A stretch of 37,081 bases of DNA from an uncultured Bacilli bacterium (GTDB lineage Bacteria > Bacillota_I > Bacilli_A > RF39 > UBA660), in assembly GCA_934086255.1 (NCBI GenBank), contig CAKOIB010000002.1, forward strand, positions 1 to 37,081, written 5' to 3'. Below the pieces are notes generated by a model. It saw only the letters and a list, made by a program, of their open reading frames with translations. It was not told the DNA's origin and made no database searches. Positions 15,226 to 37,081 of the stretch are shown here, one piece after another (position 1 is the first letter of the stretch; each line of letters opens with the position of its first letter). The position numbers were made by a program, and so were the translations under genes.

Positions 15226-16122
15226 TCACCTACTTATATAGTTCATTATTTCTAATATTCTGTTTAGATCATTATCATTTTCATATGATATTTCCATTTT
15301 TTTATTATTTAGTTTTACTCTTGTTCCAAAATATTCTGATAGTTGTTTTTCTAAATCAATGTACTCGCTTGATTTTTCTTTATGTTGTTTAGTAATTTTA
15401 TTCTTTCTTTCGTATTCACTATTATTTGATGATAGTTGTTCTAGTTGTCTTACACTTAAATTGTCTGTGATTGTTTTTGCCGCTAGTGTTTCTATTTTTT
15501 CTTTATCTTCTAGTTTTGATAATACTCTGGCGTGTCCCATTGTTATTTTATTTGTAATAATTAAGTCTTTTATTGATTCTGGAAGATTTAGTATTCCAAG
15601 GATGTTTGTTATGTGACTTCTTGACTTCCCAACTTTTTTCGCTAGTTGTTCTTGGTTTAAGTTTAATGTTTGCATTAGATTTTTGTATGCTTCTGCTTCT
15701 TCGATTGGATTTAGGTTTTCTCTTTGAAGGTTTTCTAATACTGCAATTTCCATCATTTGTTCATCTGTAAAATCTCTAATTATTGCTGGTATTGTTTCTT
15801 TTCCTGCTAATTGTGAAGCACGATATCTTCTTTCTCCTGCTACTATTTCGTAACCTTTTATGCTTTTTTTGACTATTATTGGTTGGATTACTCCATGTTC
15901 TTTTATTGATTCTGCTAGTTCTTGAAGTGCTTCTTCGTCAAATATTTTTCTAGGTTGGTATGGATTTACTCTTAAATCAGATAGTTTTATTTCTTTTACT
16001 TCATCTAATTCTACTGTTTCCATTATTTTTTCTTCTACTTTGTCATAGTTTATGTCTTCAATGTTGAATAGTTCTTCTAGTCCTATTCCTAGGGCTCTTC
16101 TTGTTTTATTGTTTGTTTCCAT
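15226..16122 (-). CDS. spo0J: chromosome partitioning protein ParB/Spo0J (parS-binding type)
   Basis: ParB N-domain with the GERRYRAS CTP-binding motif. HTH region is GKSRSHITNILGIL...MGHARVL (ParB-like). Directly downstream of soj. The start is set at ATG 16122, after a GAGGTGA RBS. Confidence 0.93.
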   Translation of the reverse strand: METNNKTRRALGIGLEELFNIEDINYDKVEEKIMETVELDEVKEIKLSDLRVNPYQPRKIFDEEALQELAESIKEHGVIQPIIVKKSIKGYEIVAGERRYRASQLAGKETIPAIIRDFTDEQMMEIAVLENLQRENLNPIEEAEAYKNLMQTLNLNQEQLAKKVGKSRSHITNILGILNLPESIKDLIITNKITMGHARVLSKLEDKEKIETLAAKTITDNLSVRQLEQLSSNNSEYERKNKITKQHKEKSSEYIDLEKQLSEYFGTRVKLNNKKMEISYENDNDLNRILEIMNYISR

Positions 16123-16888
16123 TTGCTTCAATCACCTCTTTGGCTAAATTTAGATATGCTTCTGATCCTCTACTTTTTGGATCGTATGCTATTATTGGTT
16201 TTCCATGTGATGGTGCTTCTGTTAATCTGATAAGTCTTGGAATTATTGTATTGTATACTTTGTCTTTGAAATATTTTCTTATTTCTTCGACTACTTCTAA
16301 TCCTAAGTTTGTTCTTACATCTAGCATTGTTAATAGTACTCCTTCGATTGCTAAGTTTGGATTTAGATTTGCTTGAGTATACATTATTGCTTTTAGTAAT
16401 TGGGTAATTCCCTCTAATGCAAAGAATTCGCATTGTACTGGAATTATTACTGAGTCTGATGCTGTTAGGGCGTTTGTTGTTATTATACCAAGTGATGGAG
16501 GGCAATCTATTATTATGTAATCATATTTGTCTTTTATTTTACTAATATGGTATTTTAATTGTTCTGCTTTTGATATGTTTGAGTCTTTATGTTCTAATTC
16601 TATGTCTATTCCTGCTAGGTTTATGTTTGCTGGAAGTACGTATAGATTTTTGTATTTTGTTTTTATTATGGTTTCTTCTATTGTAGATGTGTCATTTAAG
16701 ACGTTGTAAATACTTTTTTCTATTTCCCCTTTGTTTATACCTATTCCTGTTGTTGCATTGCATTGTGGATCTAGATCTATTAATAGAACTTTTTTATTTA
16801 ATAATGCTAATGATGCAGAAAGATTGATACTTGTAGTTGTTTTTCCTACTCCACCTTTTTGATTTATTAAAGATATTACTTTTCCCAT
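16106..16888 (-). CDS. soj: ParA/Soj partitioning ATPase
   Basis: Deviant Walker A motif NQKGGVGKTTT, with ParA-family sequence throughout. Confidence 0.95.
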   Translation of the reverse strand: MGKVISLINQKGGVGKTTTSINLSASLALLNKKVLLIDLDPQCNATTGIGINKGEIEKSIYNVLNDTSTIEETIIKTKYKNLYVLPANINLAGIDIELEHKDSNISKAEQLKYHISKIKDKYDYIIIDCPPSLGIITTNALTASDSVIIPVQCEFFALEGITQLLKAIMYTQANLNPNLAIEGVLLTMLDVRTNLGLEVVEEIRKYFKDKVYNTIIPRLIRLTEAPSHGKPIIAYDPKSRGSEAYLNLAKEVIEANGNKQ

Positions 16889-16982: not shown

Positions 16983-17007
16983 AAAAAAATGCCTATATAT
17001 AGGCATT
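16983..17007 (-). terminator. intrinsic terminator after the noc-like gene
   Basis: A perfect 20-bp palindrome, AATGCCTATATATAGGCATT, overlaps the stop codon. A T run follows on the minus strand. Confidence 0.6.
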
Positions 17008-18250
17008 AAAATTTATTTTTGTCTATTTTTATTATGATTTGATAAACATTATCTAAGTCGAATTCTTGAACATCAATATTGAAACCAAATTTTTCTGTGT
17101 TTTGTACAGCTTGCCTAACGTTATTTATAGCAAATCTTAAATCGTATACTTGATTATAACTTGGTTGTTCTTCTTTTGGTTCATTTGGTATAGTCACTAC
17201 TTGTGATGCAGATTGATTATCATTTATACTTACTGGTGTTTGTTCTTGTGGGTGTGTTTCATTTATAGTTGGTATATTTATTGATTGTTCAGTTTTTATA
17301 GGTTGTTCGTTGATATTTAATGGTTGATTTTGTACATCAGTGTTAACGTTTAGTGTTGGAATTGATGGTTGTGCTATTGATGTATCTGGTGTAGATTCTT
17401 GTCTTAGCATATCAAAAATATTGGATTTTTGTGTTACTTGTTCTGTTTTAGTTTCAGTATTTGTTTCTTTTATTTCATTTGGAATAGATATAGTTTGTTG
17501 TTCTTGTTGATTGGTATTTATATTTGCTGATAGTTGTTCCTTGTTTTGTAGTGCATTTGCTACTATATCATTTTCCATTTTATTTATGTTTTCTTCTAAA
17601 ATATTTTTGTCTTGATGTTGTATTGGTTGTTCTTCTTGTGGTTTTTTTCCAGTTAAGGCCATTATTTCATCATCTAATTGTCTTACTGTTAATCTATTCA
17701 TTATTACTTGGTTTAATAGTTTCTTTTGATCTTCTAAGTTTGAAACATTTAATAGACTTCTCGCATGGCGTTCTGATATTTGTTTATTTAGTAGTGCTGT
17801 TTGAACTTCTTCTGCTAGGTTTAAAAGTCTTAATTTGTTAGCCACTGTTGATTGTGATTTTCCTAGGTTTGCTGCTAGTTCTTCTTGAGTTATATTATCT
17901 AATTTTAGAATTGTTTGGTATGTTTTTGCTTCTTCGATTGGTGTCAAATCTGATCTTTGAAGATTTTCAAGTAAAGCAATTTTAGCTGTTTCTTTATCGT
18001 CTATGTCTCTTACTAATGCTGGTATTGTTGTTTTTCCTGCTAATTGTGAAGCACGATATCTTCTTTCTCCTGCTATTATTTCGTATTTATCACCAATTTT
18101 TCTTACTATTATTGGTTGAATTACTCCATGTTCTTTTATAGATAAAGCTAACTCATTTAATGCTTGTTCGTCAAATATTTCTCTTGGTTGAAATCTATTT
18201 GGCATTATATCGTTTATATTAAGTTCGAATACTTCTTTTTCCAAGTTCAT
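17006..18250 (-). CDS. noc: Noc-type ParB paralog (nucleoid occlusion protein homolog) with a long low-complexity linker
   Basis: Sits in the rsmG-noc-soj-spo0J synteny. The HTH region GKSQSTVANKLRLLNL...ISERHARSLL closely matches my memory of B. subtilis Noc (GKGQSTIANKLRLLKLP...ITERHARALI). The C-terminal DLRFAINNVRQAV...YQIIIKIDK matches the Noc C-terminus. The start is set at ATG 18250 (AGAGGGA RBS). Confidence 0.85.
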   Translation of the reverse strand: MNLEKEVFELNINDIMPNRFQPREIFDEQALNELALSIKEHGVIQPIIVRKIGDKYEIIAGERRYRASQLAGKTTIPALVRDIDDKETAKIALLENLQRSDLTPIEEAKTYQTILKLDNITQEELAANLGKSQSTVANKLRLLNLAEEVQTALLNKQISERHARSLLNVSNLEDQKKLLNQVIMNRLTVRQLDDEIMALTGKKPQEEQPIQHQDKNILEENINKMENDIVANALQNKEQLSANINTNQQEQQTISIPNEIKETNTETKTEQVTQKSNIFDMLRQESTPDTSIAQPSIPTLNVNTDVQNQPLNINEQPIKTEQSINIPTINETHPQEQTPVSINDNQSASQVVTIPNEPKEEQPSYNQVYDLRFAINNVRQAVQNTEKFGFNIDVQEFDLDNVYQIIIKIDKNKF

Positions 18251-24624: not shown

Positions 24625-24952
24625 ATTGTTCTCCTTTTTTAAAAATAGAAATTAGTTGTTTTTCCATTTCTTGATAAGTAATGTCAACAGCATCTTTCTT
24701 TATAATAATTATATATTTTTTATTATCTTGGTAAATATTTTTATTATTATCTATTATTGATTTAGTTCTACGTTTTAATTTGTTTCTTGTTACGGCGTTT
24801 CCTATGTGTTTTACAAATGTTATACCAAATTTTGGAATATTAGAATCGTTGTTTTCTATATTTAGTATAAAGTATTTGTTTGAAACACCATTTCTTTTTT
24901 TTATTATTGAACTAAATTCATCTGATTTTTTGATGATATTAATTTTTTTCAT
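24614..24952 (-). CDS. rnpA: ribonuclease P protein component
   Basis: A basic 112-aa protein with the RNR-like motif (GNAVTRNKLKRR). Lies downstream of rpmH. Confidence 0.93.
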   Translation of the reverse strand: MKKINIIKKSDEFSSIIKKRNGVSNKYFILNIENNDSNIPKFGITFVKHIGNAVTRNKLKRRTKSIIDNNKNIYQDNKKYIIIIKKDAVDITYQEMEKQLISIFKKGEQYEK

Positions 24953-24995
24953 ATTTACCCCCTTATAAGGAAAAAACCACTTTTTCTAGTGGATA

Positions 24996-25121
24996 TTATT
25001 TTGATAATTTTTTTCTGCCTTTTCTTCTTCTGCTGTTAATTATTCCTGATTTCATACGTGAGAAAAAACCGTGTTTCTTTTTCATTCTACGCTTATTAGG
25101 TTGATATGTTCCTTTTTTCAC
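24996..25121 (-). CDS. rpmH: 50S ribosomal protein L34 (GTG start; too short for the ORF track)
   Basis: Manual translation gives (M)KKGTYQPNKRRMKKKHGFFSRMKSGIINSRRRKGRKKLSK, 41 aa. There is a GGAGGTG RBS 6 nt upstream of the GTG. Confidence 0.9.
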   Translation of the reverse strand: MKKGTYQPNKRRMKKKHGFFSRMKSGIINSRRRKGRKKLSK

Positions 25122-25150
25122 TTCTTGCACCTCCAAACTTATTCGCTATT

Positions 25151-25180
25151 ATTATAAGAAAAAAATAGACTAGTTGTCAA
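25151..25180 (-). promoter_or_regulatory. rpmH promoter
   Basis: The minus strand reads TTGACA (25180-25175), an 18-nt spacer, then TATAAT (25156-25151). Confidence 0.5.
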
Positions 25181-25218
25181 TGTTTTTTTTGAAATTAACA
25201 GTTTCAACGTTAATTAAC

Positions 25219-25343
25219 AGTTAATAATTGTTTCATTGTTAATTTGTTAATAAAAAAATTGTTGAAATTTGTTGAAAATTAATTTATTATATATAAACAA
25301 AGGAAATTGTATGTTAATAAGTCTGTTAATAACTTGTTAATAA
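25219..25343. promoter_or_regulatory. oriC left module: cluster of DnaA-box-like 9-mers between rpmH and dnaA
   Basis: TGTTAATAA (the reverse complement of TTATTAACA; canonical box is TTATCCACA) occurs exactly at 25245, 25312, 25324 and 25335, the last three spaced 11-12 bp apart. Near-variants occur at 25219, 25237, 25260 and 25270. All are in one orientation. Confidence 0.7.
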
Positions 25344-25426
25344 CTTTTTTGCTATTTTATTTTTTAACAATTTGTATTACAATGTAATTAGATGCAAATA
25401 CTTTATGATGGGGGAGAGTGGTTTCG

Positions 25427-26797
25427 ATGGACAATAATTCTTTATGGAAAAAAGTTTTAGATGAAATTAGTGTTAATTTAGATTCAATGTCTTTTGAAAC
25501 CTGGTTTAACGGAATTGATTTCTTTGATATAAATGAAAATAATATACGTTTGGTTGTTCCTATTATGTTTTATAAGAATCATATTGATGAACATTATAAA
25601 CAATTGATATTAGATAGTTTTAATAAGTTATTAACAAAACCTGTTGATAACATAGTTTATATTTTACAAAAAGATTTAAATAATTTTTTAGAAGTTGAGA
25701 AAAAGGAAACAGAACCAGTTAAAGTTAATGATTTTAATTCTTATAGTAATTTTAATTCTAATTTAAAAAGTAATTATACTTTTGAAAGTTTTGTAGTTGG
25801 AGAATCTAATAAGTTTGCACAAGCTGCTGCTTTAGCTGTTGCTGAAAATCCTGGTACTATGTATAACCCACTTTTTATTTATGGTAATAGTGGTCTTGGT
25901 AAAACTCATTTAATGCATGCTATTGGTAATTTTATTGTTAATAAGCACAAACTTAGAGTTTTATATGTAACTTGTGATAATTTTATGAATGATTTTGTAG
26001 GATTGTCTAGAAATAATCAGCAGCATATGAATAATTTAGATTATATTGAGTTTTTTAAAAATAAGTATAGAAATATAGATGTTTTGATTATTGATGATAT
26101 TCAATTTTTAGGTGGGGCAGAAAAGTCTCAACAGGAGTTCTTTCATACTTTTAACAACTTGTATAATGATAGTAAGCAAATTATTGTTTCTTCTGATAGA
26201 TCTCCTGAAGATTTAAAGTTTCTAGAAGATCGTTTAAAAACTAGATTTTGTTGGGGATTACAGGTTGATATTGATCCTCCGGATACTTCTCTTAAGGTTG
26301 CAATTATAAAGAAGAAAATTCGGGGAGAAAATATATTACTTAATGATGATGTGGTTAATTATATTGCTTCAAATGTTGGAAATGATGTTAGACAGCTTGA
26401 AGGATCGATAAATAGATTGGTTGCTTACTCTGCTATTATGAATGAAAGTAATATTACAGTTGATTTTGCGATGGAGGCATTGAAAGATTTTACTAAAAAA
26501 CAAGTTACTGATAGTAATAATATAAGGAGAATTCAAAAAGAAGTGGCTAATTTTTATAAGATTTCTTATGAGGATATGAAGTCTAAAAAGAGAACTCCTA
26601 GTCTTGCTATTCCAAGACAGGTTGCTATGTATTTGTGTAGAAAACTAACTGATGAATCATATGAAAGAATTGGTATTGAGTTTTCTGGTAAGAATCATGC
26701 TACTGTAATACATGCATGCAATAAGATAGCAGGTGAAATGAAAACTAATAGTAATTTAAAGAGTGCTATTGATGATATTGAAAAGCAATTAACATAA
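25427..26797 (+). CDS. dnaA: chromosomal replication initiator protein DnaA
   Basis: AAA+ Walker A motif GNSGLGKTHL, box VII, and the domain IV DNA-binding region (IPRQVAMYLCR...GGKNHATVIHA). The start is ATG 25427 (RBS GGGGGAG), or alternatively GTG 25418. Confidence 0.97.
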   Translation: MDNNSLWKKVLDEISVNLDSMSFETWFNGIDFFDINENNIRLVVPIMFYKNHIDEHYKQLILDSFNKLLTKPVDNIVYILQKDLNNFLEVEKKETEPVKVNDFNSYSNFNSNLKSNYTFESFVVGESNKFAQAAALAVAENPGTMYNPLFIYGNSGLGKTHLMHAIGNFIVNKHKLRVLYVTCDNFMNDFVGLSRNNQQHMNNLDYIEFFKNKYRNIDVLIIDDIQFLGGAEKSQQEFFHTFNNLYNDSKQIIVSSDRSPEDLKFLEDRLKTRFCWGLQVDIDPPDTSLKVAIIKKKIRGENILLNDDVVNYIASNVGNDVRQLEGSINRLVAYSAIMNESNITVDFAMEALKDFTKKQVTDSNNIRRIQKEVANFYKISYEDMKSKKRTPSLAIPRQVAMYLCRKLTDESYERIGIEFSGKNHATVIHACNKIAGEMKTNSNLKSAIDDIEKQLT

Positions 26798-26800
26798 TGA

Positions 26801-26900
26801 TGTTAGTAAATGTTAATAAATATCCAACTTATTAACATAATAAAATTAGTTTAAACTGTTTATAGATAAGGAAATTGATGACTTATTAACAATATTAACA
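26801..26900. promoter_or_regulatory. oriC right module: DnaA-box-like 9-mers between dnaA and dnaN, followed by an AT-rich tract
   Basis: TGTTAATAA at 26811 (variant TGTTAGTAA at 26801). TTATTAACA at 26829 and 26883, and ATATTAACA at 26892. The very AT-rich stretch 26900-26940 that follows is a candidate unwinding element. Confidence 0.6.
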
Positions 26901-26947
26901 GTAATAATATAAATAATAAATATATTAAAAGAAAGAAGGAATGAAAT

Positions 26948-28066
26948 ATGAAATTTAGAATTAAAAAAAATGTTTTACTTGAAGCACTTAATAATGTTTC
27001 AAAAGCTTTATCAAATAAGAATATTATACCAATACTATCAGGAATAAAATTTGAACTTTTTGATGATAGACTAGTTCTTACAGCATCTGATAATGATATA
27101 ACCATTCAATCAATTATTGAGAAAAGTGATGATATTGATATTGTTAATACTGGTAGTATTGTTATAAAAGGTAAATATATATTAGACATAATAAGAAAAT
27201 TAGAAGATAAATTTATTAATGTTGAACTTTTTGATGATTATAAGATAATGATTTATACTGAAAATAGTGAGTTTAGTTTAAATGGTATTGATATTAAGGA
27301 ATATCCTCAGATAGATTTATCATTTTCTTCTGATGTTATTAGTTTGCCTGTTAATGAACTTAAGAATATGATTGCTCAAACTAATTATGCTACTAGTATG
27401 GATGAAGCTAGAGTAGTGTTAACTGGTGTTAATATAAAAATAAATGATAAATTATTAGAATGTAGTGCAACTGATTCTTATAGATTAGCTCTTAAGAAGA
27501 TTATTTTATCTGATAGTTTTGAAAAATTGGTAGATATTATTATACCAAGTAAAAATTTGGGTGAATTATTTAAAATTTTACCTAGCGATTTTGATGGTAA
27601 TGTTAATATGTATATATATAATAGTAAAATTATATTCGGTTTTGAAAATATTATTTTTCAATCTAGGTTAATTAGTGGTAATTATCCTAATACAAAGAAT
27701 TTAATTCCAAATGATAGTTTATTTGATTTAAGAGTCAATAGAAGTGAGTTTTATAATATGGTTGATCGTGCTAGTATACTTAATAATGATAAAGATAATA
27801 ATATTATTACTTTAGAAATTAACGATAATTTGTTAAAAATTACTTCAATGTCTTTAGAAATTGGTAAAGTTGAAGAAAAAATGAGTATTAATTGCTCTGA
27901 TAATATAAAAATTTCTTTTAGTAGTAAATATATGATGGAGGCTTTATCAAAAGTTAAGGGTGATGAAGTTATACTTACTTTTGTTGGTGAAGTAAAACCA
28001 ATTTTATTAAAAGAAGCAAATGATGATAGTTTAATTTCTTTAATTTTACCTATTAGAACTTATTAA
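26948..28066 (+). CDS. dnaN: DNA polymerase III beta sliding clamp
   Basis: Typical length and a three-domain beta-clamp sequence (MKF.I.K..L...L..V, C-terminal LPIRTY-like end). dnaA-dnaN synteny. Confidence 0.97.
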   Translation: MKFRIKKNVLLEALNNVSKALSNKNIIPILSGIKFELFDDRLVLTASDNDITIQSIIEKSDDIDIVNTGSIVIKGKYILDIIRKLEDKFINVELFDDYKIMIYTENSEFSLNGIDIKEYPQIDLSFSSDVISLPVNELKNMIAQTNYATSMDEARVVLTGVNIKINDKLLECSATDSYRLALKKIILSDSFEKLVDIIIPSKNLGELFKILPSDFDGNVNMYIYNSKIIFGFENIIFQSRLISGNYPNTKNLIPNDSLFDLRVNRSEFYNMVDRASILNNDKDNNIITLEINDNLLKITSMSLEIGKVEEKMSINCSDNIKISFSSKYMMEALSKVKGDEVILTFVGEVKPILLKEANDDSLISLILPIRTY

Positions 28067-28143: not shown

Positions 28144-28210
28144 TCTTCATATGGTAGGGTATTGGTCAATATATTTTTATATATTAATTTTTGTGTATGG
28201 GGGTGATTTT

Positions 28211-28666
28211 ATGGATTATGATATTAATAGGGATACAGTAATGATTATTCCAATAAATGATAAGAAATCTAGAGTTATTGAAACTAATGGTGATTATATA
28301 GTTGATGATAATGCTTATTCTATTATGGAACGTAGTTGTTTGTATTTCGGAAGTTCATATGAGGGAAGACTTTTGAGTTCGAAAAGTATTCTTGGTAGTG
28401 TTTACAAGGCTCCAATTGTGGTTGAAGAAAGTAGAAGTATTATATTTTTTCCTGTAAAATCTTCAGTTGTAAAACAAAATGTTTGGATTTCTTTGAATAA
28501 TTTAGTTAGTTATAATAAACATGAGAAAAAAACTATTATAACCTTCAAGAGAGATAAACAAGTTTTATTGGATATTCCTTATTTTTCTATTGATAATCAG
28601 GTTCTTAGATCTACTTTGTTAGAATCTGTTATTCGTAGGAGAAAAAACGAAGAAAAAAACGATTAA
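28211..28666 (+). CDS. ComK-family transcription factor homolog
   Basis: IMERSCLYFGSSYEGR, YKAPIVVEESRSIIFFPVKS, NVWISLNNL and FSIDNQVLRS line up with my memory of B. subtilis ComK (IVDRSCRFFGSSYAGRK, HKPPIMVDPSNQIFLFPTLS, GWISHVHV, NSFENQVYRT). The start is set at ATG 28211 (RBS GGGGGTGA). Confidence 0.8.
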   Translation: MDYDINRDTVMIIPINDKKSRVIETNGDYIVDDNAYSIMERSCLYFGSSYEGRLLSSKSILGSVYKAPIVVEESRSIIFFPVKSSVVKQNVWISLNNLVSYNKHEKKTIITFKRDKQVLLDIPYFSIDNQVLRSTLLESVIRRRKNEEKND

Positions 28667-34481: not shown

Positions 34482-34497
34482 TGTTTCACGTGAAACT
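34482..34497. other. parS site a (15/16 match)
   Basis: TGTTTCACGTGAAACT compared with the consensus TGTTTCACGTGAAACA. A TGTTAATAA 9-mer begins 23 bp upstream. Confidence 0.75.
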
Positions 34498-34693
34498 TTT
34501 GTCAATATGTTATTAAATTTTAAATATAATTATTTTAAGTTTGATTTATTTTGTTTATATTAACTTAATTAATTATATTTTTATTTTGCTTTTTACATAA
34601 GTTATATATTAGTTTATAGTATTTGTGTTTTAATATGTATAGTTACAATTGTAAAACTTTTAATTTAAAATTGTTAATAAATATTTTTTTCAA

Positions 34694-34709
34694 TGTTTCA
34701 CGTGAAACA
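34694..34709. other. parS site b (16/16)
   Basis: TGTTTCACGTGAAACA lies inside the 22-bp perfect palindrome CAATGTTTCACGTGAAACATTG (34691-34712). It ends 1 nt before the -35 box of the SRP RNA promoter. Confidence 0.85.
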
Positions 34710-34713
34710 TTGA

Positions 34714-34742
34714 TTGACTATTTTTTGGTTTTATTATAATAT
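34714..34742 (+). promoter_or_regulatory. SRP RNA promoter
   Basis: TTGACT (34714-34719), a 17-nt spacer, then TAATAT (34737-34742). An alternative TATAAT lies at 34735-34740. The predicted start is near G34749. Confidence 0.55.
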
Positions 34743-34748
34743 ATATTT

Positions 34749-34819
34749 GTGCAACGCATAAGATTGAATTAGGTCAGGATTGGAAAATAGCAGCCTTAAG
34801 ATCCTCTATGCGTGTGCAC
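34749..34819 (+). ncRNA. ffs: small (4.5S-type) SRP RNA
   Basis: A single long hairpin, GTGCA.CGCATA...TATGCG.TGCAC. Its apex carries the universal domain IV motif GGTCAGG-ATT-GGAA-AAT-AGCAGCC (compare E. coli GGUCAGGUCCGGAAGGAAGCAGCC). It is followed by T8. Confidence 0.85.
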
Positions 34820-34838
34820 TTTTTTTTGGAGGTTTTTT

Positions 34839-35279
34839 ATGTTATTAAATGAAGACAATTATTACTTCAGTTTAGCTTTAAAAGAAGCAAAAAAAGCGTT
34901 AAAAACAAATAATGTTCCAGTAGGTTGTGTTATTGTTTTTAGAAATAGAGTAATTGCTAAAGCATACAATAAGAAAAATAGTAAAAATATTTCAGTATAT
35001 CATGCTGAAATATTGGCAATTATTAAAGCATGTAAATGTTTAAAAACTTTTATTTTAAATGAATGTACTATGTATGTTACCTTAGAACCTTGTAAAATGT
35101 GTATGAATGCTATTGCTGAATCGCGTATTAGAAATGTTAATTACTTAATTTCTTCCAAATATGAAATTAATTTAAAAAGTAACTATGATCGTATTAGCTG
35201 TAAACAATTTGATGATAATGAATTTGCAGATAAATATAAGAAAATATTGTCAGAGTTTTTTAGTAATATTAGAGGTTAA
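34839..35279 (+). CDS. tadA: tRNA-specific adenosine deaminase TadA
   Basis: CDA-fold zinc motifs HAE and PCKMC. Typical TadA length (146 aa). The start is set at ATG 34839, after a GGAGG RBS. Confidence 0.9.
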   Translation: MLLNEDNYYFSLALKEAKKALKTNNVPVGCVIVFRNRVIAKAYNKKNSKNISVYHAEILAIIKACKCLKTFILNECTMYVTLEPCKMCMNAIAESRIRNVNYLISSKYEINLKSNYDRISCKQFDDNEFADKYKKILSEFFSNIRG

Positions 35280-35282
35280 CAA

Positions 35283-35298
35283 TGTTTCACGTGAAACA
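35283..35298. other. parS site c (16/16)
   Basis: TGTTTCACGTGAAACA lies inside the 26-bp palindrome AACAATGTTTCACGTGAAACATTGTT. It starts 4 nt after the tadA stop codon and is followed by a TTT run. Confidence 0.85.
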
Positions 35299-35370
35299 TT
35301 GTTTTTAAAATAAAATTATATTAATGTATTATGTTCTTAAAAATGTTCATCTAATATAGATATAGCTTGT

Positions 35371-35394
35371 AAATTATTTCCCGGGAAATAATTT
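35371..35394. other. Noc-binding-site (NBS) palindrome 1
   Basis: The 24-bp perfect palindrome AAATTATTTCCCGGGAAATAATTT contains the B. subtilis NBS consensus ATTTCCCGGGAAAT exactly. Confidence 0.8.
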
Positions 35395-35439
35395 TGAATT
35401 GAAAAGTATTATTAAATTGTTAATAAGTATTTATTTTTA

Positions 35440-35455
35440 TGTTTCACGTGAAACA
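35440..35455. other. parS site d (16/16)
   Basis: TGTTTCACGTGAAACA. A TGTTAATAA 9-mer begins 22 bp upstream. Confidence 0.85.
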
Positions 35456-35556
35456 TTAGAAAATATCAATATTTTTAATATTTGTTTATTATTTTAAAAT
35501 ATTTTGTCTTTTTTTTTATTTAAGTAACTGTTTTAATTTTTTGCATTCTAATCTTA

Positions 35557-35572
35557 TGTTTCACGTGAAACA
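35557..35572. other. parS site e (16/16)
   Basis: TGTTTCACGTGAAACA, followed by TTGTTTTT. Confidence 0.85.
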
Positions 35573-35641
35573 TTGTTTTTAGATATAATAATACTGATTG
35601 CTATGATTTTGAAAATACTTATTAATATAAAATTGGGTTGT

Positions 35642-35665
35642 AAATTATTTCCCGGGAAATAATTT
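35642..35665. other. NBS palindrome 2
   Basis: AAATTATTTCCCGGGAAATAATTT, identical to copy 1. Confidence 0.8.
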
Positions 35666-35711
35666 TGAATTGAAAAGCATTATTAAATTGTTAATAAATA
35701 CTTATTTCTAA

Positions 35712-35727
35712 TGTTTCACGTGAAACA
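35712..35727. other. parS site f (16/16)
   Basis: TGTTTCACGTGAAACA. A TGTTAATAA 9-mer begins 23 bp upstream. Confidence 0.85.
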
Positions 35728-35826
35728 TTAGAAAATATCAATATTTTTAATGCTTGTTATTATTCTAAAATATTTTGTCTTTCTTTTTATTAAGTAATTG
35801 TTTTAATTTTTTTTATTCTAATCTTA

Positions 35827-35842
35827 TGTTTCACGTGAAACA
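35827..35842. other. parS site g (16/16)
   Basis: TGTTTCACGTGAAACA, followed by TTGTTTTT. Confidence 0.85.
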
Positions 35843-35910
35843 TTGTTTTTAGATAAAATAATATTGATTGTTATGATCTTGAAAATACTCATTATATAGA
35901 AATAACTTGT

Positions 35911-35934
35911 AAATTATTTCCCGGGAAATAATTT
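35911..35934. other. NBS palindrome 3
   Basis: AAATTATTTCCCGGGAAATAATTT, identical to copies 1 and 2. Confidence 0.8.
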
Positions 35935-35980
35935 CGAATTGAAAAGCATTATTAAATTGTTAATAAGTGCTTATTTCTAA

Positions 35981-35996
35981 TGTTTCACGTGAAACA
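35981..35996. other. parS site h (16/16)
   Basis: TGTTTCACGTGAAACA. A TGTTAATAA 9-mer begins 23 bp upstream. Confidence 0.85.
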
Positions 35997-36082
35997 TAAA
36001 AATGATTTATCAGGTTATCTTAGACATAGACTTTATTACTTTAATTTGATACAATATTTATAGTTGTTTTGGGGGTGATATT

Positions 36083-37081
36083 ATTGCTTATTTAGCTTTA
36101 TATAGAAAATATAGACCAACTAATTTTAATGAGGTCGCTGGTCAAGATTCTATTGTCAAGATACTTAAAAATTCTATTGTTAATGACTGCATTTCTCATG
36201 CTTATTTATTTGCTGGCCCAAGAGGAACTGGCAAAACAAGTATGGCTAAGATTATTGCTAAAACTATTAATTGCTTTAATTTGAATGGAATTACATTTTG
36301 CAATGAATGTGATAGTTGTATTGCTTTTAATAATAAAAATAATCCTGATATTATTGAAATTGATGCTGCTTCTAATAACGGTGTTGAAGAGATTAGAAAA
36401 ATAAGAGATAGTGTTAATTTAATGCCTAGTATATCGAAATATAAAATTTATATTATTGATGAGGTTCACATGTTATCGAGTGGAGCTTTTAATGCATTGT
36501 TAAAAACTCTTGAGGAACCTCCTGCTCATGTTATTTTTATATTGGCAACTACAGAATTTTACAAAATTCCAGAAACTATTATTTCTAGATGTCAATGTTT
36601 TAGTTTTGAACGCATTTCAAACAATGATATTGTTAATAAATTAAAATATATTGTTAATTGTGAAAAAATTAATATTGATGATGAAGTCTTGAATTTAATT
36701 GCAAAATATAGTGATGGTGGTTTAAGAGATTCGATTAGCATGTTAGATAAATTAACTTCTTATTCTGATAAAATTACTGTTGATGATTATTATACTTTAA
36801 AGGGTATTGTGAATGAGGAATATTTAAAATCTTTAACAGATTATATTTTCAATGCTGATGTTTCTAGTATTTTGAATCTATTAACTGAATTGGAAAATTT
36901 GGGTAAAGATATAGTTATTTTATTAGATAGTTTTATGGATTATCTTAAGGATCATTTAGTTTTATATAATAACAACGATTTTGATTCTATTTATAATTTA
37001 ATTCTTGAATTGAATGAATTAGATATATTATTAAAAAGAAGTAGTAACAAAAAAATTATTTTTGAAGTTGGAATTATTAAA
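36083..37081 (+). CDS. dnaX: DNA polymerase III subunit tau/gamma (DnaX), 5' part; runs off the window; apparent non-canonical start
   Basis: The manual translation reads ...IAYLALYRKYRPTNFNEVAGQDSIVKILKNSI...GPRGTGKTSMAKI...IIDEVHMLS..AFNALLKTLEEPP. The frame opens after a TGA at 36047. It has no ATG, GTG or TTG before the conserved N-terminus. ATT at 36083 lies about 7 nt after a GGGGGTGA RBS. Confidence 0.85.
   Translation, partial: MAYLALYRKYRPTNFNEVAGQDSIVKILKNSIVNDCISHAYLFAGPRGTGKTSMAKIIAKTINCFNLNGITFCNECDSCIAFNNKNNPDIIEIDAASNNGVEEIRKIRDSVNLMPSISKYKIYIIDEVHMLSSGAFNALLKTLEEPPAHVIFILATTEFYKIPETIISRCQCFSFERISNNDIVNKLKYIVNCEKINIDDEVLNLIAKYSDGGLRDSISMLDKLTSYSDKITVDDYYTLKGIVNEEYLKSLTDYIFNADVSSILNLLTELENLGKDIVILLDSFMDYLKDHLVLYNNNDFDSIYNLILELNELDILLKRSSNKKIIFEVGIIK

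Follow-up and report, generated by a model that had tools for sequence, protein, structure and literature searches.

A candidate composite centromere of interleaved parS and Noc-type sites beside the replication origin of uncultured Bacilli

Can two paralogous DNA clamps share a single chromosomal centromere? This question is raised by a 1.5-kb segment (34482-35996) of the window, by which we mean the whole 37,081-nt stretch of contig CAKOIB010000002.1 from an uncultured Bacilli bacterium: here parS sites of the partition protein ParB (Spo0J) are interleaved with palindromes of the Noc-binding site (NBS) type, and a Noc-like ParB paralog is encoded in the same window. Noc is the textbook case of a ParB paralog that has changed both its DNA specificity and its task, which became the tethering of dispersed chromosomal sites to the membrane so as to block division. 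We propose, at a probability of about 0.62, that the segment is a conserved composite origin-proximal centromere that would be loaded by both paralogs as cytidine triphosphate (CTP)-dependent clamps, with binding and function predicted from sequence.

Two families of sites in one array

The segment contains the following sites and repeat:

34482-34497, parS with one mismatch (TGTTTCACGTGAAACT), in the spacer between gyrA and the signal recognition particle (SRP) RNA gene
34694-34709, perfect parS, directly upstream of the SRP RNA gene
35282-35997, tandem array, 271-bp unit x 2.6
35283-35298, perfect parS, starting 4 nt past the tadA stop codon
35371-35394, NBS copy 1, 24-bp perfect palindrome AAATTATTTCCCGGGAAATAATTT
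35440-35455, perfect parS
35557-35572, perfect parS
35642-35665, NBS copy 2, AAATTATTTCCCGGGAAATAATTT
35712-35727, perfect parS
35827-35842, perfect parS
35911-35934, NBS copy 3, AAATTATTTCCCGGGAAATAATTT
35981-35996, perfect parS, with a promoter-like site for dnaX ~30 nt downstream

The 24-bp palindrome occurs exactly three times in the window (0 expected from 100 shuffles), at 35371, 35642 and 35911 as an earlier reading of the same DNA from its letters (the sequence-only reading) had stated to the base, and no further copy was found in the whole window at up to 3 mismatches. All three palindromes have the exact 14-bp core ATTTCCCGGGAAAT, for which the window offers no other match when up to 3 mismatches are allowed. 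The same core is the NBS of GGATATTTCCCGGGAAATATCC, the oligonucleotide of the Noc-DNA co-crystal (PMC7383237), and the earlier assignment of the core as an exact NBS is borne out by this identity. The parS family is represented by seven perfect copies of TGTTTCACGTGAAACA and the single-mismatch copy, eight in all, which are spread over 1.5 kb and clustered 8-10 kb from dnaA, fitting consensus parS (TGTTNCACGTGAAACA) near oriC. The gaps from parS to the following palindrome (72, 69 and 68 nt) and from the palindrome to the next parS (45, 46 and 46 nt) agree with the 68-72 and 45-46 bp first given, but the order of sites, PPPNPPNPPNP (P, parS; N, NBS), is interleaved and not strictly alternating as had been claimed.

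Each 271-bp unit is composed of parS, ~70 nt, NBS, ~46 nt, parS and ~100 nt; a comparison of the units gives 100% identity for each of the three site classes, as against 71-93% for the spacers. The array lies between gyrA/tadA and dnaX, ~9 kb from dnaA, and ends ~87 nt short of dnaX. An Rfam scan and terminator prediction of the window found nothing that coincides with the NBS or parS sites.

Other assemblies of the same species were found by an exact look-up of the TadA product, which identified 20 contigs, ten of them examined here (L001-L010) and derived from differing samples and assemblers. All ten contain the same array and flanks with two or three NBS, i.e. one ~270-bp unit more or less, and the tadA-dnaX spacer measures ~693 or 963 nt depending on the assembly. 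This difference is a true copy-number polymorphism or a partial collapse, not a chimera. That the repeat as a whole is a collapsed or chimeric product of short-read assembly is scarcely credible: several short-read contigs do stop within the array (L005, L010) and the copy number does vary among assemblies, but the ten contigs share unit structure and flanks, and an equivalent array stands on the circular metaFlye long-read chromosome of a relative (OZ006970.1), where a 126-bp NBS/parS unit with unrelated spacers is repeated 5.6 times. Loss of the repeat on long-read assembly had been named beforehand as the outcome that would discredit it; the relative's chromosome has an equivalent array, and the ten contigs retain the repeat.

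In addition, an imperfect palindrome, TTATTAAATTGTTAATAA, is found ~10-20 nt upstream of five of the eight parS, two of these outside the tandem repeat. Considered as a clade-wide third element it was rejected, being species-specific and not present in the arrays of other species. Its positions are:

34665-34691, 35411-35437, 35682-35708 and 35951-35977, copies of TTATTAAATTGTTAATAA
34449-34475, a weaker copy

A Noc-like paralog with NBS-type recognition residues

Which proteins of this organism could read the two families of sites? Three genes of the window are relevant:

15226-16131, minus strand, spo0J (ParB), with specificity quartet R-I-N-G and N-terminal RRALGIGLEELF peptide
16106-16888, minus strand, soj (ParA ATPase)
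17006-18250, minus strand, Noc-like ParB paralog of 414 amino acids (aa)

The Spo0J of the window, with R173/G201-type recognition residues and Soj as its partner, has the features of a chromosomal ParABS system. The paralog starts with an ATG at 18250 that is preceded by a GAGGG ribosome-binding site, and the protein begins MNLEKEV. It has both CTP motifs, GERRYRA and ENLQR, which are kept in 118-119 of 120 close homologs, and its helix-turn-helix region reads GKSQSTVANKLRLLNL...SERHAR. At the four specificity positions (173/179/184/201, Jalal et al. 2020) its residues are Q-K-N-R, as in 115 of the 120 close homologs, compared with Q-K-K-R in canonical Noc and the parS-type R-I-N-G in the Spo0J of the window. 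Q173 and R201 make the base contacts that are specific to NBS, and one Lys at position 179 or 184 suffices (Jalal et al. 2020, PMC7383237); K/R occupies one or the other of these positions in ~91% of the library variants specific for NBS (PMC7383237). The wider family, represented by the best 150 cluster representatives of an exhaustive search, has a Q-K-x-R quartet and total lengths of 263-821 aa.

How far this protein is a Noc was assessed by several comparisons. In a phmmer search of the PDB, Noc chains scored best (195-221 bits, vs 176 bits for Spo0J), and the NCBIfam Noc model (TIGR04285) assigned it 297.7 bits and the Spo0J of the window 241.4 bits, the cut-off of 315 not being reached. 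Identity over the N-terminal and DNA-binding domains is 50-55% with Noc and 48-50% with Spo0J. Aligned with Geobacillus Noc (7NFU), its residue 5 corresponds to residue 26, and helices alpha1 (membrane-targeting) and alpha2 are missing. The short N-terminus is common to the family: 119 of the 120 close homologs have no N-terminal extension, and 144 of the best 150 representatives start 14-20 aa before PNRFQPR. The N-terminal amphipathic helix (aa 1-10/15) was present in every Noc homologue examined and is needed for function (Adams et al. 2015, PMC4331003). The AlphaFold (AF2) model of the paralog has a confident N-terminal plus DNA-binding part (1-200), a disordered linker (207-368; 100-600 aa long across the family), and a small confident C-terminal domain of the Noc type.

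Since the columns diagnostic for Noc versus Spo0J are divided into 12 Noc, 12 Spo0J and 8 other residues, the protein stands, as a natural intermediate in sequence, between Noc and ParB/Spo0J. With Noc it shares the CTPase-domain motifs, the combination of Q173/R201 with Lys179, and the gene order rsmG(gidB)-noc-soj-spo0J. Judged by sequence, it is not a canonical Noc, from which it departs in the membrane helix, in Lys184, in the score of the profile model, and in the dispersal of its putative sites. The earlier annotation of a Noc-type paralog at 17006-18250 is therefore retained in part: the gene is present and encodes NBS-type residues, but it is not a canonical noc (no membrane helix, 297.7 < 315 bits).

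Inside the hypervariable disordered linker we observed a conserved motif, NIFDMLR (aa 277-283; 17402-17422, minus strand). It is the only AlphaFold helix of the linker and its hydrophobic-moment peak (0.67, vs 0.60 for the N-terminus of B. subtilis Noc), and it might bind a partner or act as a weak membrane anchor in a new position. NIFDxLR is found in 108 of the 120 close homologs but in 9 of the best 150 family representatives; as a family-wide feature it was thus rejected, being confined to the subfamily.

Recurrence of the array and its place at the origin

Does the interleaving recur in other species? A scan of 185,579 species genomes for ATTTCCCGGGAAAT-N(48-78)-GTTTCACGTGAAAC, which surveyed gaps of 48-78 nt only, identified no fewer than 120 loci in at least 119 species genomes (the genome set, L011-L130), so that the survey of parS/NBS co-occurrence in relatives proposed by the sequence-only reading had a positive outcome, with counts that are limited by the phylogenetic non-independence of the loci. 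All matches listed are on low-GC contigs (22-35%) labelled as uncultured Bacilli, Erysipelotrichaceae, Tenericutes, Mollicutes or Mycoplasma, Candidatus Onthousia, or Clostridium sp. CAG:1193, and none of those listed belongs to a cultured Bacillus- or Staphylococcus-type genus. Some matches are in bins named Muribaculaceae, Phocaeicola vulgatus, Bacteroidaceae, Agathobacter or Lachnospiraceae (L018, L035, L042, L051, L056, L057, L067, L070, L076 and others), evidently through contamination or mislabelling in public metagenome-assembled genomes.

The gyrA-tadA-dnaX slot holds sites in all of these at least 120 loci, with GyrA 59-96% identical to that of the window; the array is mostly in the gyrA-tadA spacer and in some cases, including the window, in the tadA-dnaX spacer. 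The arrays comprise 1-11 NBS and 1-10 parS, frequently as strict NPNPNP or PNPPNP series, and 514 of 715 transitions between neighbouring sites are between the two families (376 +/- 11 after shuffling, a test that overstates independence because tandem duplication alone yields alternation). Spacers are unrelated between lineages, and the closest NBS and parS centres are 21-30 bp apart in many relatives. The consensus extends the NBS to 24 bp (aAAATTATTTCCCGGGAAATAATTTt), lone sites included, and parS to ~20 bp. No hybrid NBS/parS half-sites occur in the loci listed, and a third motif or DnaA-box enrichment common to the arrays was rejected, none being clade-wide in the same loci. The sites are under purifying selection, and at least 119 species keep NBS interleaved with parS, a conserved arrangement that is evidently selected.

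It could be argued that the palindromes are not Noc sites at all, and serve another DNA-binding protein or are structural or selfish repeats that resemble the NBS. Binding of the NBS by the paralog is only predicted, and the species-specific element TTATTAAATTGTTAATAA near five of eight parS is a further point in its favour. We regard this explanation as very improbable: the 120 loci listed contain 363 exact 14-mer NBS cores against ~0.003 expected by chance per 1.5-Mb genome, the palindromes co-occur with a paralog bearing the Q/R specificity switch, there is no clade-wide third motif and no Rfam or terminator match at the sites, and an in-frame coding copy within dnaX (described below) preserves the DNA palindrome.

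The distances between NBS and parS centres in the genome set peak at 25, 36, 47.5, 57.5, 68, 79 and 89.5 bp, which corresponds to a period of ~10.7 bp with an offset of about half a turn, and the parS-parS distances have no 10.7-bp signal. After alignment-based collapsing of spacer families the phasing had p<1/3000 at 80% identity and p~0.011 at 65%; a single-linkage control was degenerate, with one AT-rich cluster taking 394 of 469 pairs. Helical phasing is not claimed here, as it failed to replicate in the independent metagenome set introduced next (51 families, power 1.7).

Where NBS lie when parS is not required was addressed by a metagenome scan with the exact 20-mer ATTATTTCCCGGGAAATAAT, a fair probe because lone sites of the genome set match it at least as often as clustered ones. 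It identified at least 120 loci, with 114 low-GC among the matches listed, to which the following counts refer. Of 236 NBS, 98 are within 150 bp of a parS. Among loci that measure 3 kb or more, 82% by a strict and 89% by a lenient count contain at least one of 17 origin-region marker genes, whereas an even distribution of sites along ~1.5 Mb would predict ~3%. The larger loci that have no marker, 14 in number, fall into two groups by synteny: the first has the order holB-yaaT-rsmI-[NBS]-pth-mfd-metG, a place equivalent to 3-8 kb past dnaX in the species of the window, and the second shares its contigs with arrays located 10-25 kb away. The recurrent extra NBS of the relatives are found inside dnaX, near gyrB/recF, near mnmE/mnmG, near pth/mfd, and 10-25 kb off. 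The site within dnaX, ~1.0-1.1 kb from its start, encodes K-I-I-S-R-E-I-I-S in 47 of the 120 dnaX genes listed; because the NBS is always in frame, this coding segment doubles as a perfect extended NBS palindrome. It was seen among dnaX genes of both sets of loci (L011-L130 and L135-L254) and is absent from the species of the window (L001 11404-12870).

Exact NBS in this clade are thus parS-like and origin-restricted, within ~+/-25 kb of oriC in the sampled loci, compared with the dispersed pattern of B. subtilis and S. aureus (PMC7383237, PMC5540599). The sequence-only reading had asked whether NBS are confined to the array. Within ~55 kb of contiguous sequence of the species of the window (a 138-kb contig extended on both sides) they are, as all NBS (up to 3 mismatches), CCCGGG and parS (up to 2 mismatches) fall within 34482-35996; clade-wide they are not, given the recurrent extra sites.

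These distributions bear on the explanation by an ordinary Noc system, in which NBS would be dispersed genome-wide and mostly degenerate, and the origin cluster would be only the densest patch, inflated by tandem duplication and uncoupled from parS. Consistent with it, 51 of 404 NBS in the genome set listed and 129 of 236 in the metagenome set listed are away from parS, NBS of model organisms are likewise enriched in the origin-proximal half, and the probe demanded exact matches. We nevertheless consider it improbable, in view of the 82-89% of listed NBS loci of at least 3 kb that contain origin genes and the rest that are 3-25 kb from arrays, the recurrence of alternation with parS across unrelated spacers in at least 119 species, and a protein without the helix required for classical nucleoid occlusion (PMC4331003).

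The window itself is a replication-origin neighbourhood, in which coding strand and skew both change over at dnaA. The plus side comprises rnpA, yidC and jag, followed by dnaA, dnaN, a ComK-family gene, recF, gyrB and gyrA, and the minus side mnmE, mnmG, rsmG, the Noc-like gene, soj and spo0J. The landmarks around the array are:

25418-26797, plus strand, dnaA (Pfam Bac_DnaA), marking oriC ~9 kb left of the array
34738-34835, plus strand, SRP RNA gene (ffs), flanked by the two upstream parS and by tadA
34839-35279, plus strand, tadA, left flank of the main array
36083-37081, plus strand, 5' part of dnaX, running off the window, right flank of the array

Several side observations were made in this region. 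The start codon of dnaX is seemingly a non-canonical ATT (36080 or 36083) after a GGGGGTG ribosome-binding site, yielding IIAYLALYRKYRP (region 36071-36245); public gene calls begin dnaX at the ATG at 36242, with which the Walker A motif would be lost. The ComK-family gene (28151-28666, plus strand; Pfam PF06338, 118 bits) lies between dnaN and recF, and many relatives are alike by tblastn. No DnaA-box cluster was found at the dnaA flanks (24952-25418 and 26797-26948, no TTATCCACA match at up to 1 mismatch), and the window as a whole has 12 such matches, with 12.6 expected; the DnaA boxes of this origin may be divergent or elsewhere. Genes near the origin in the species of the window encode MreB, FemAB, YkuD, an MraY-like transferase, and CotE- and SpoVT-like proteins (L131 11046-11591 and 14660-15643; L001 19523-20053). 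Since MreB, FemAB, YkuD, CotE and SpoVT are encoded in these flanks, the organism is walled and not a mollicute, despite the 'Mollicutes/Tenericutes' labels of its relatives; it is probably rod-shaped and possibly spore-forming.

Proposed function and comparison with known systems

What might two clamps do at one centromere? In the reading that we prefer, ParB (Spo0J) would load at the eight parS and the Noc-derived paralog at the three extended NBS embedded among them. The CTP-clamp motifs are preserved in both proteins, and each dimer, by analogy with described clamps (PMC8429893), would nucleate on its own palindrome, bind CTP, close, and slide along the adjoining DNA. Spacings of 20-100 bp between sites would bring the two clamps together on a few kb beside oriC, where they could form one mixed partition-complex-like nucleoprotein domain. 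Given that the paralog has no N-terminal membrane helix and that its sites lie within roughly +/-25 kb of oriC, its activity would be concentrated on the segregating origin and not over the nucleoid. It would probably act via the long disordered linker and, in this subfamily, the NIFDxLR motif, candidate contributions being recruitment of a partner by the linker, a weak membrane contact, or an effect on the timing of division or initiation. Spo0J and Noc together delay Z-ring assembly in B. subtilis (PMC6852036), and Noc of S. aureus restrains or controls replication initiation (PMC5540599). From analogy only, we infer which protein would bind which site, whether the clamps would spread, co-occupy the DNA, co-assemble or collide, and what their cellular role may be.

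The composite ParB+Noc centromere of the sequence-only reading is thus upheld insofar as the interleaving near the origin is conserved. Its 'membrane tethering hub' is unsupported as stated, because the paralog is not a canonical Noc, having no N-terminal amphipathic membrane helix, scoring below the NCBIfam Noc cut-off and being intermediate between Noc and Spo0J.

The same layout might instead serve antagonism or insulation: NBS-bound dimers of the paralog would be roadblocks that trap or hold back sliding ParB clamps, or the reverse, or the paralog would control replication or transcription at oriC/dnaX. Such a role would suit the many relatives with NBS and parS centres only 21-30 bp apart, the last parS ~30 nt upstream of the promoter-like site of dnaX, the in-frame NBS within dnaX in 47 of 120 relatives listed, and the control of replication initiation by S. 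aureus Noc (PMC5540599). However, the array shifts between the gyrA-tadA and tadA-dnaX spacers from species to species, which argues against a fixed promoter relationship, and the dnaA flanks in the window contain no NBS. We consider this a possible but rather unlikely account.

Several points weigh against a composite centromere as proposed here, in addition to the tandem duplication and shared descent that qualify the counts above. Position 184 of the paralog is Asn in the window and N, S, T, A or G among the best 150 cluster representatives, with Lys once, whereas Lys184 is near-invariant in Noc (PMC7383237). The exact QKNR variant was not found in those parts of the Jalal 2020 supplements that were consulted. 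The paralog differs from Noc in two defining features (membrane helix, NCBIfam cut-off), which makes extrapolation from B. subtilis Noc uncertain. An exact 20-mer probe would miss degenerate NBS elsewhere, and the scans covered loci, not complete genomes. Finally, the helical phasing, which would argue for direct physical coupling of the two clamps, failed to replicate.

As to the origin of the arrangement, we tentatively suggest, as a conjecture that is more doubtful than the composite centromere itself, that the clade preserves, or has reverted to, an early stage of Noc evolution, in which: i) after duplication of parB, the paralog first switched specificity and NBS arose from parS copies within the centromere array, so that it started out as a second CTP clamp of the centromere, and ii) the membrane helix, Lys184 and the genome-wide dispersal of NBS, the marks of classical nucleoid occlusion, arose afterwards in the Bacillales/Staphylococcales line. 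On this view the mixed array would be a natural case of two paralogous sliding clamps that have to share one stretch of DNA. The clade also provides a candidate intermediate of the ParB-to-Noc transition, which until now has been reconstructed by mutagenesis only. The branch of uncultured Bacilli concerned is very large, with no fewer than 150 protein clusters (50% identity) and 119 species genomes, and its members are low-GC, small-genome gut bacteria. They appear to use the same NBS sequence differently, among origin parS and with a protein that has no membrane helix, which suggests that NBS specificity and membrane tethering are separable in nature. Because the layout recurs and the usual membrane anchor is missing, Noc of this clade appears to work at the centromere rather than across the chromosome. 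The array would offer a natural substrate on which to study loading, collision or co-condensation of two sliding clamps that depend on CTP and share their DNA, and it is relevant to the coordination of origin segregation and division in gut bacteria with reduced genomes; its elements are short and defined, so that a 1.6-kb DNA fragment and purified proteins would suffice for direct tests. Literature searches for parS/NBS co-arrays or a helix-less Noc found no description, in agreement with the initial impression that the arrangement is undescribed.

Compared with the Noc-NBS system of B. subtilis and S. aureus, the clade has in common the 14-bp NBS core, a ParB-fold CTPase with GERRxRA/ENLQR, the Q and R switch residues, a C-terminal domain of the Noc type, and a gene located between rsmG and soj-spo0J. 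Its paralog differs in having no membrane helix, N/S/T/A/G in place of Lys184 and a disordered linker of 100-600 aa, in scoring below the NCBIfam cut-off, and in being as near to Spo0J as to Noc at the diagnostic columns; its NBS are clustered with parS within ~+/-25 kb of oriC, whereas those of B. subtilis and S. aureus occupy the origin-proximal half to two-thirds of the chromosome.

With chromosomal ParABS systems it shares multiple consensus parS within ~10 kb of oriC, a ParB of the R...G type, a ParA partner and intergenic arrays; unlike in those systems, the parS array is systematically interleaved with the putative sites of a second paralogous clamp. We know of no chromosomal centromere with two alternating site families. 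MipZ of Caulobacter, reportedly described by Thanbichler and Shapiro in 2006 as a ParA-like ATPase recruited through protein contact with ParB at parS, is alike in concept only, as a cell-cycle regulator concentrated at the segregating centromere and not along the nucleoid; the second factor of the clade is a ParB paralog with its own putative DNA sites. Closest in recognition residues are the engineered PtoN variants of the Q-K-x-R class (Jalal et al. 2020), in which the combination of Q173, K179 and R201 is sufficient for NBS preference. The clade proteins have this combination, with a non-lysine residue at 184; they differ from the engineered variants in being natural, widespread and accompanied by matching natural sites, which they are predicted to bind. 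The combined system would thus work like ParB-parS and Noc-NBS together, as far as function can be read from sequence.

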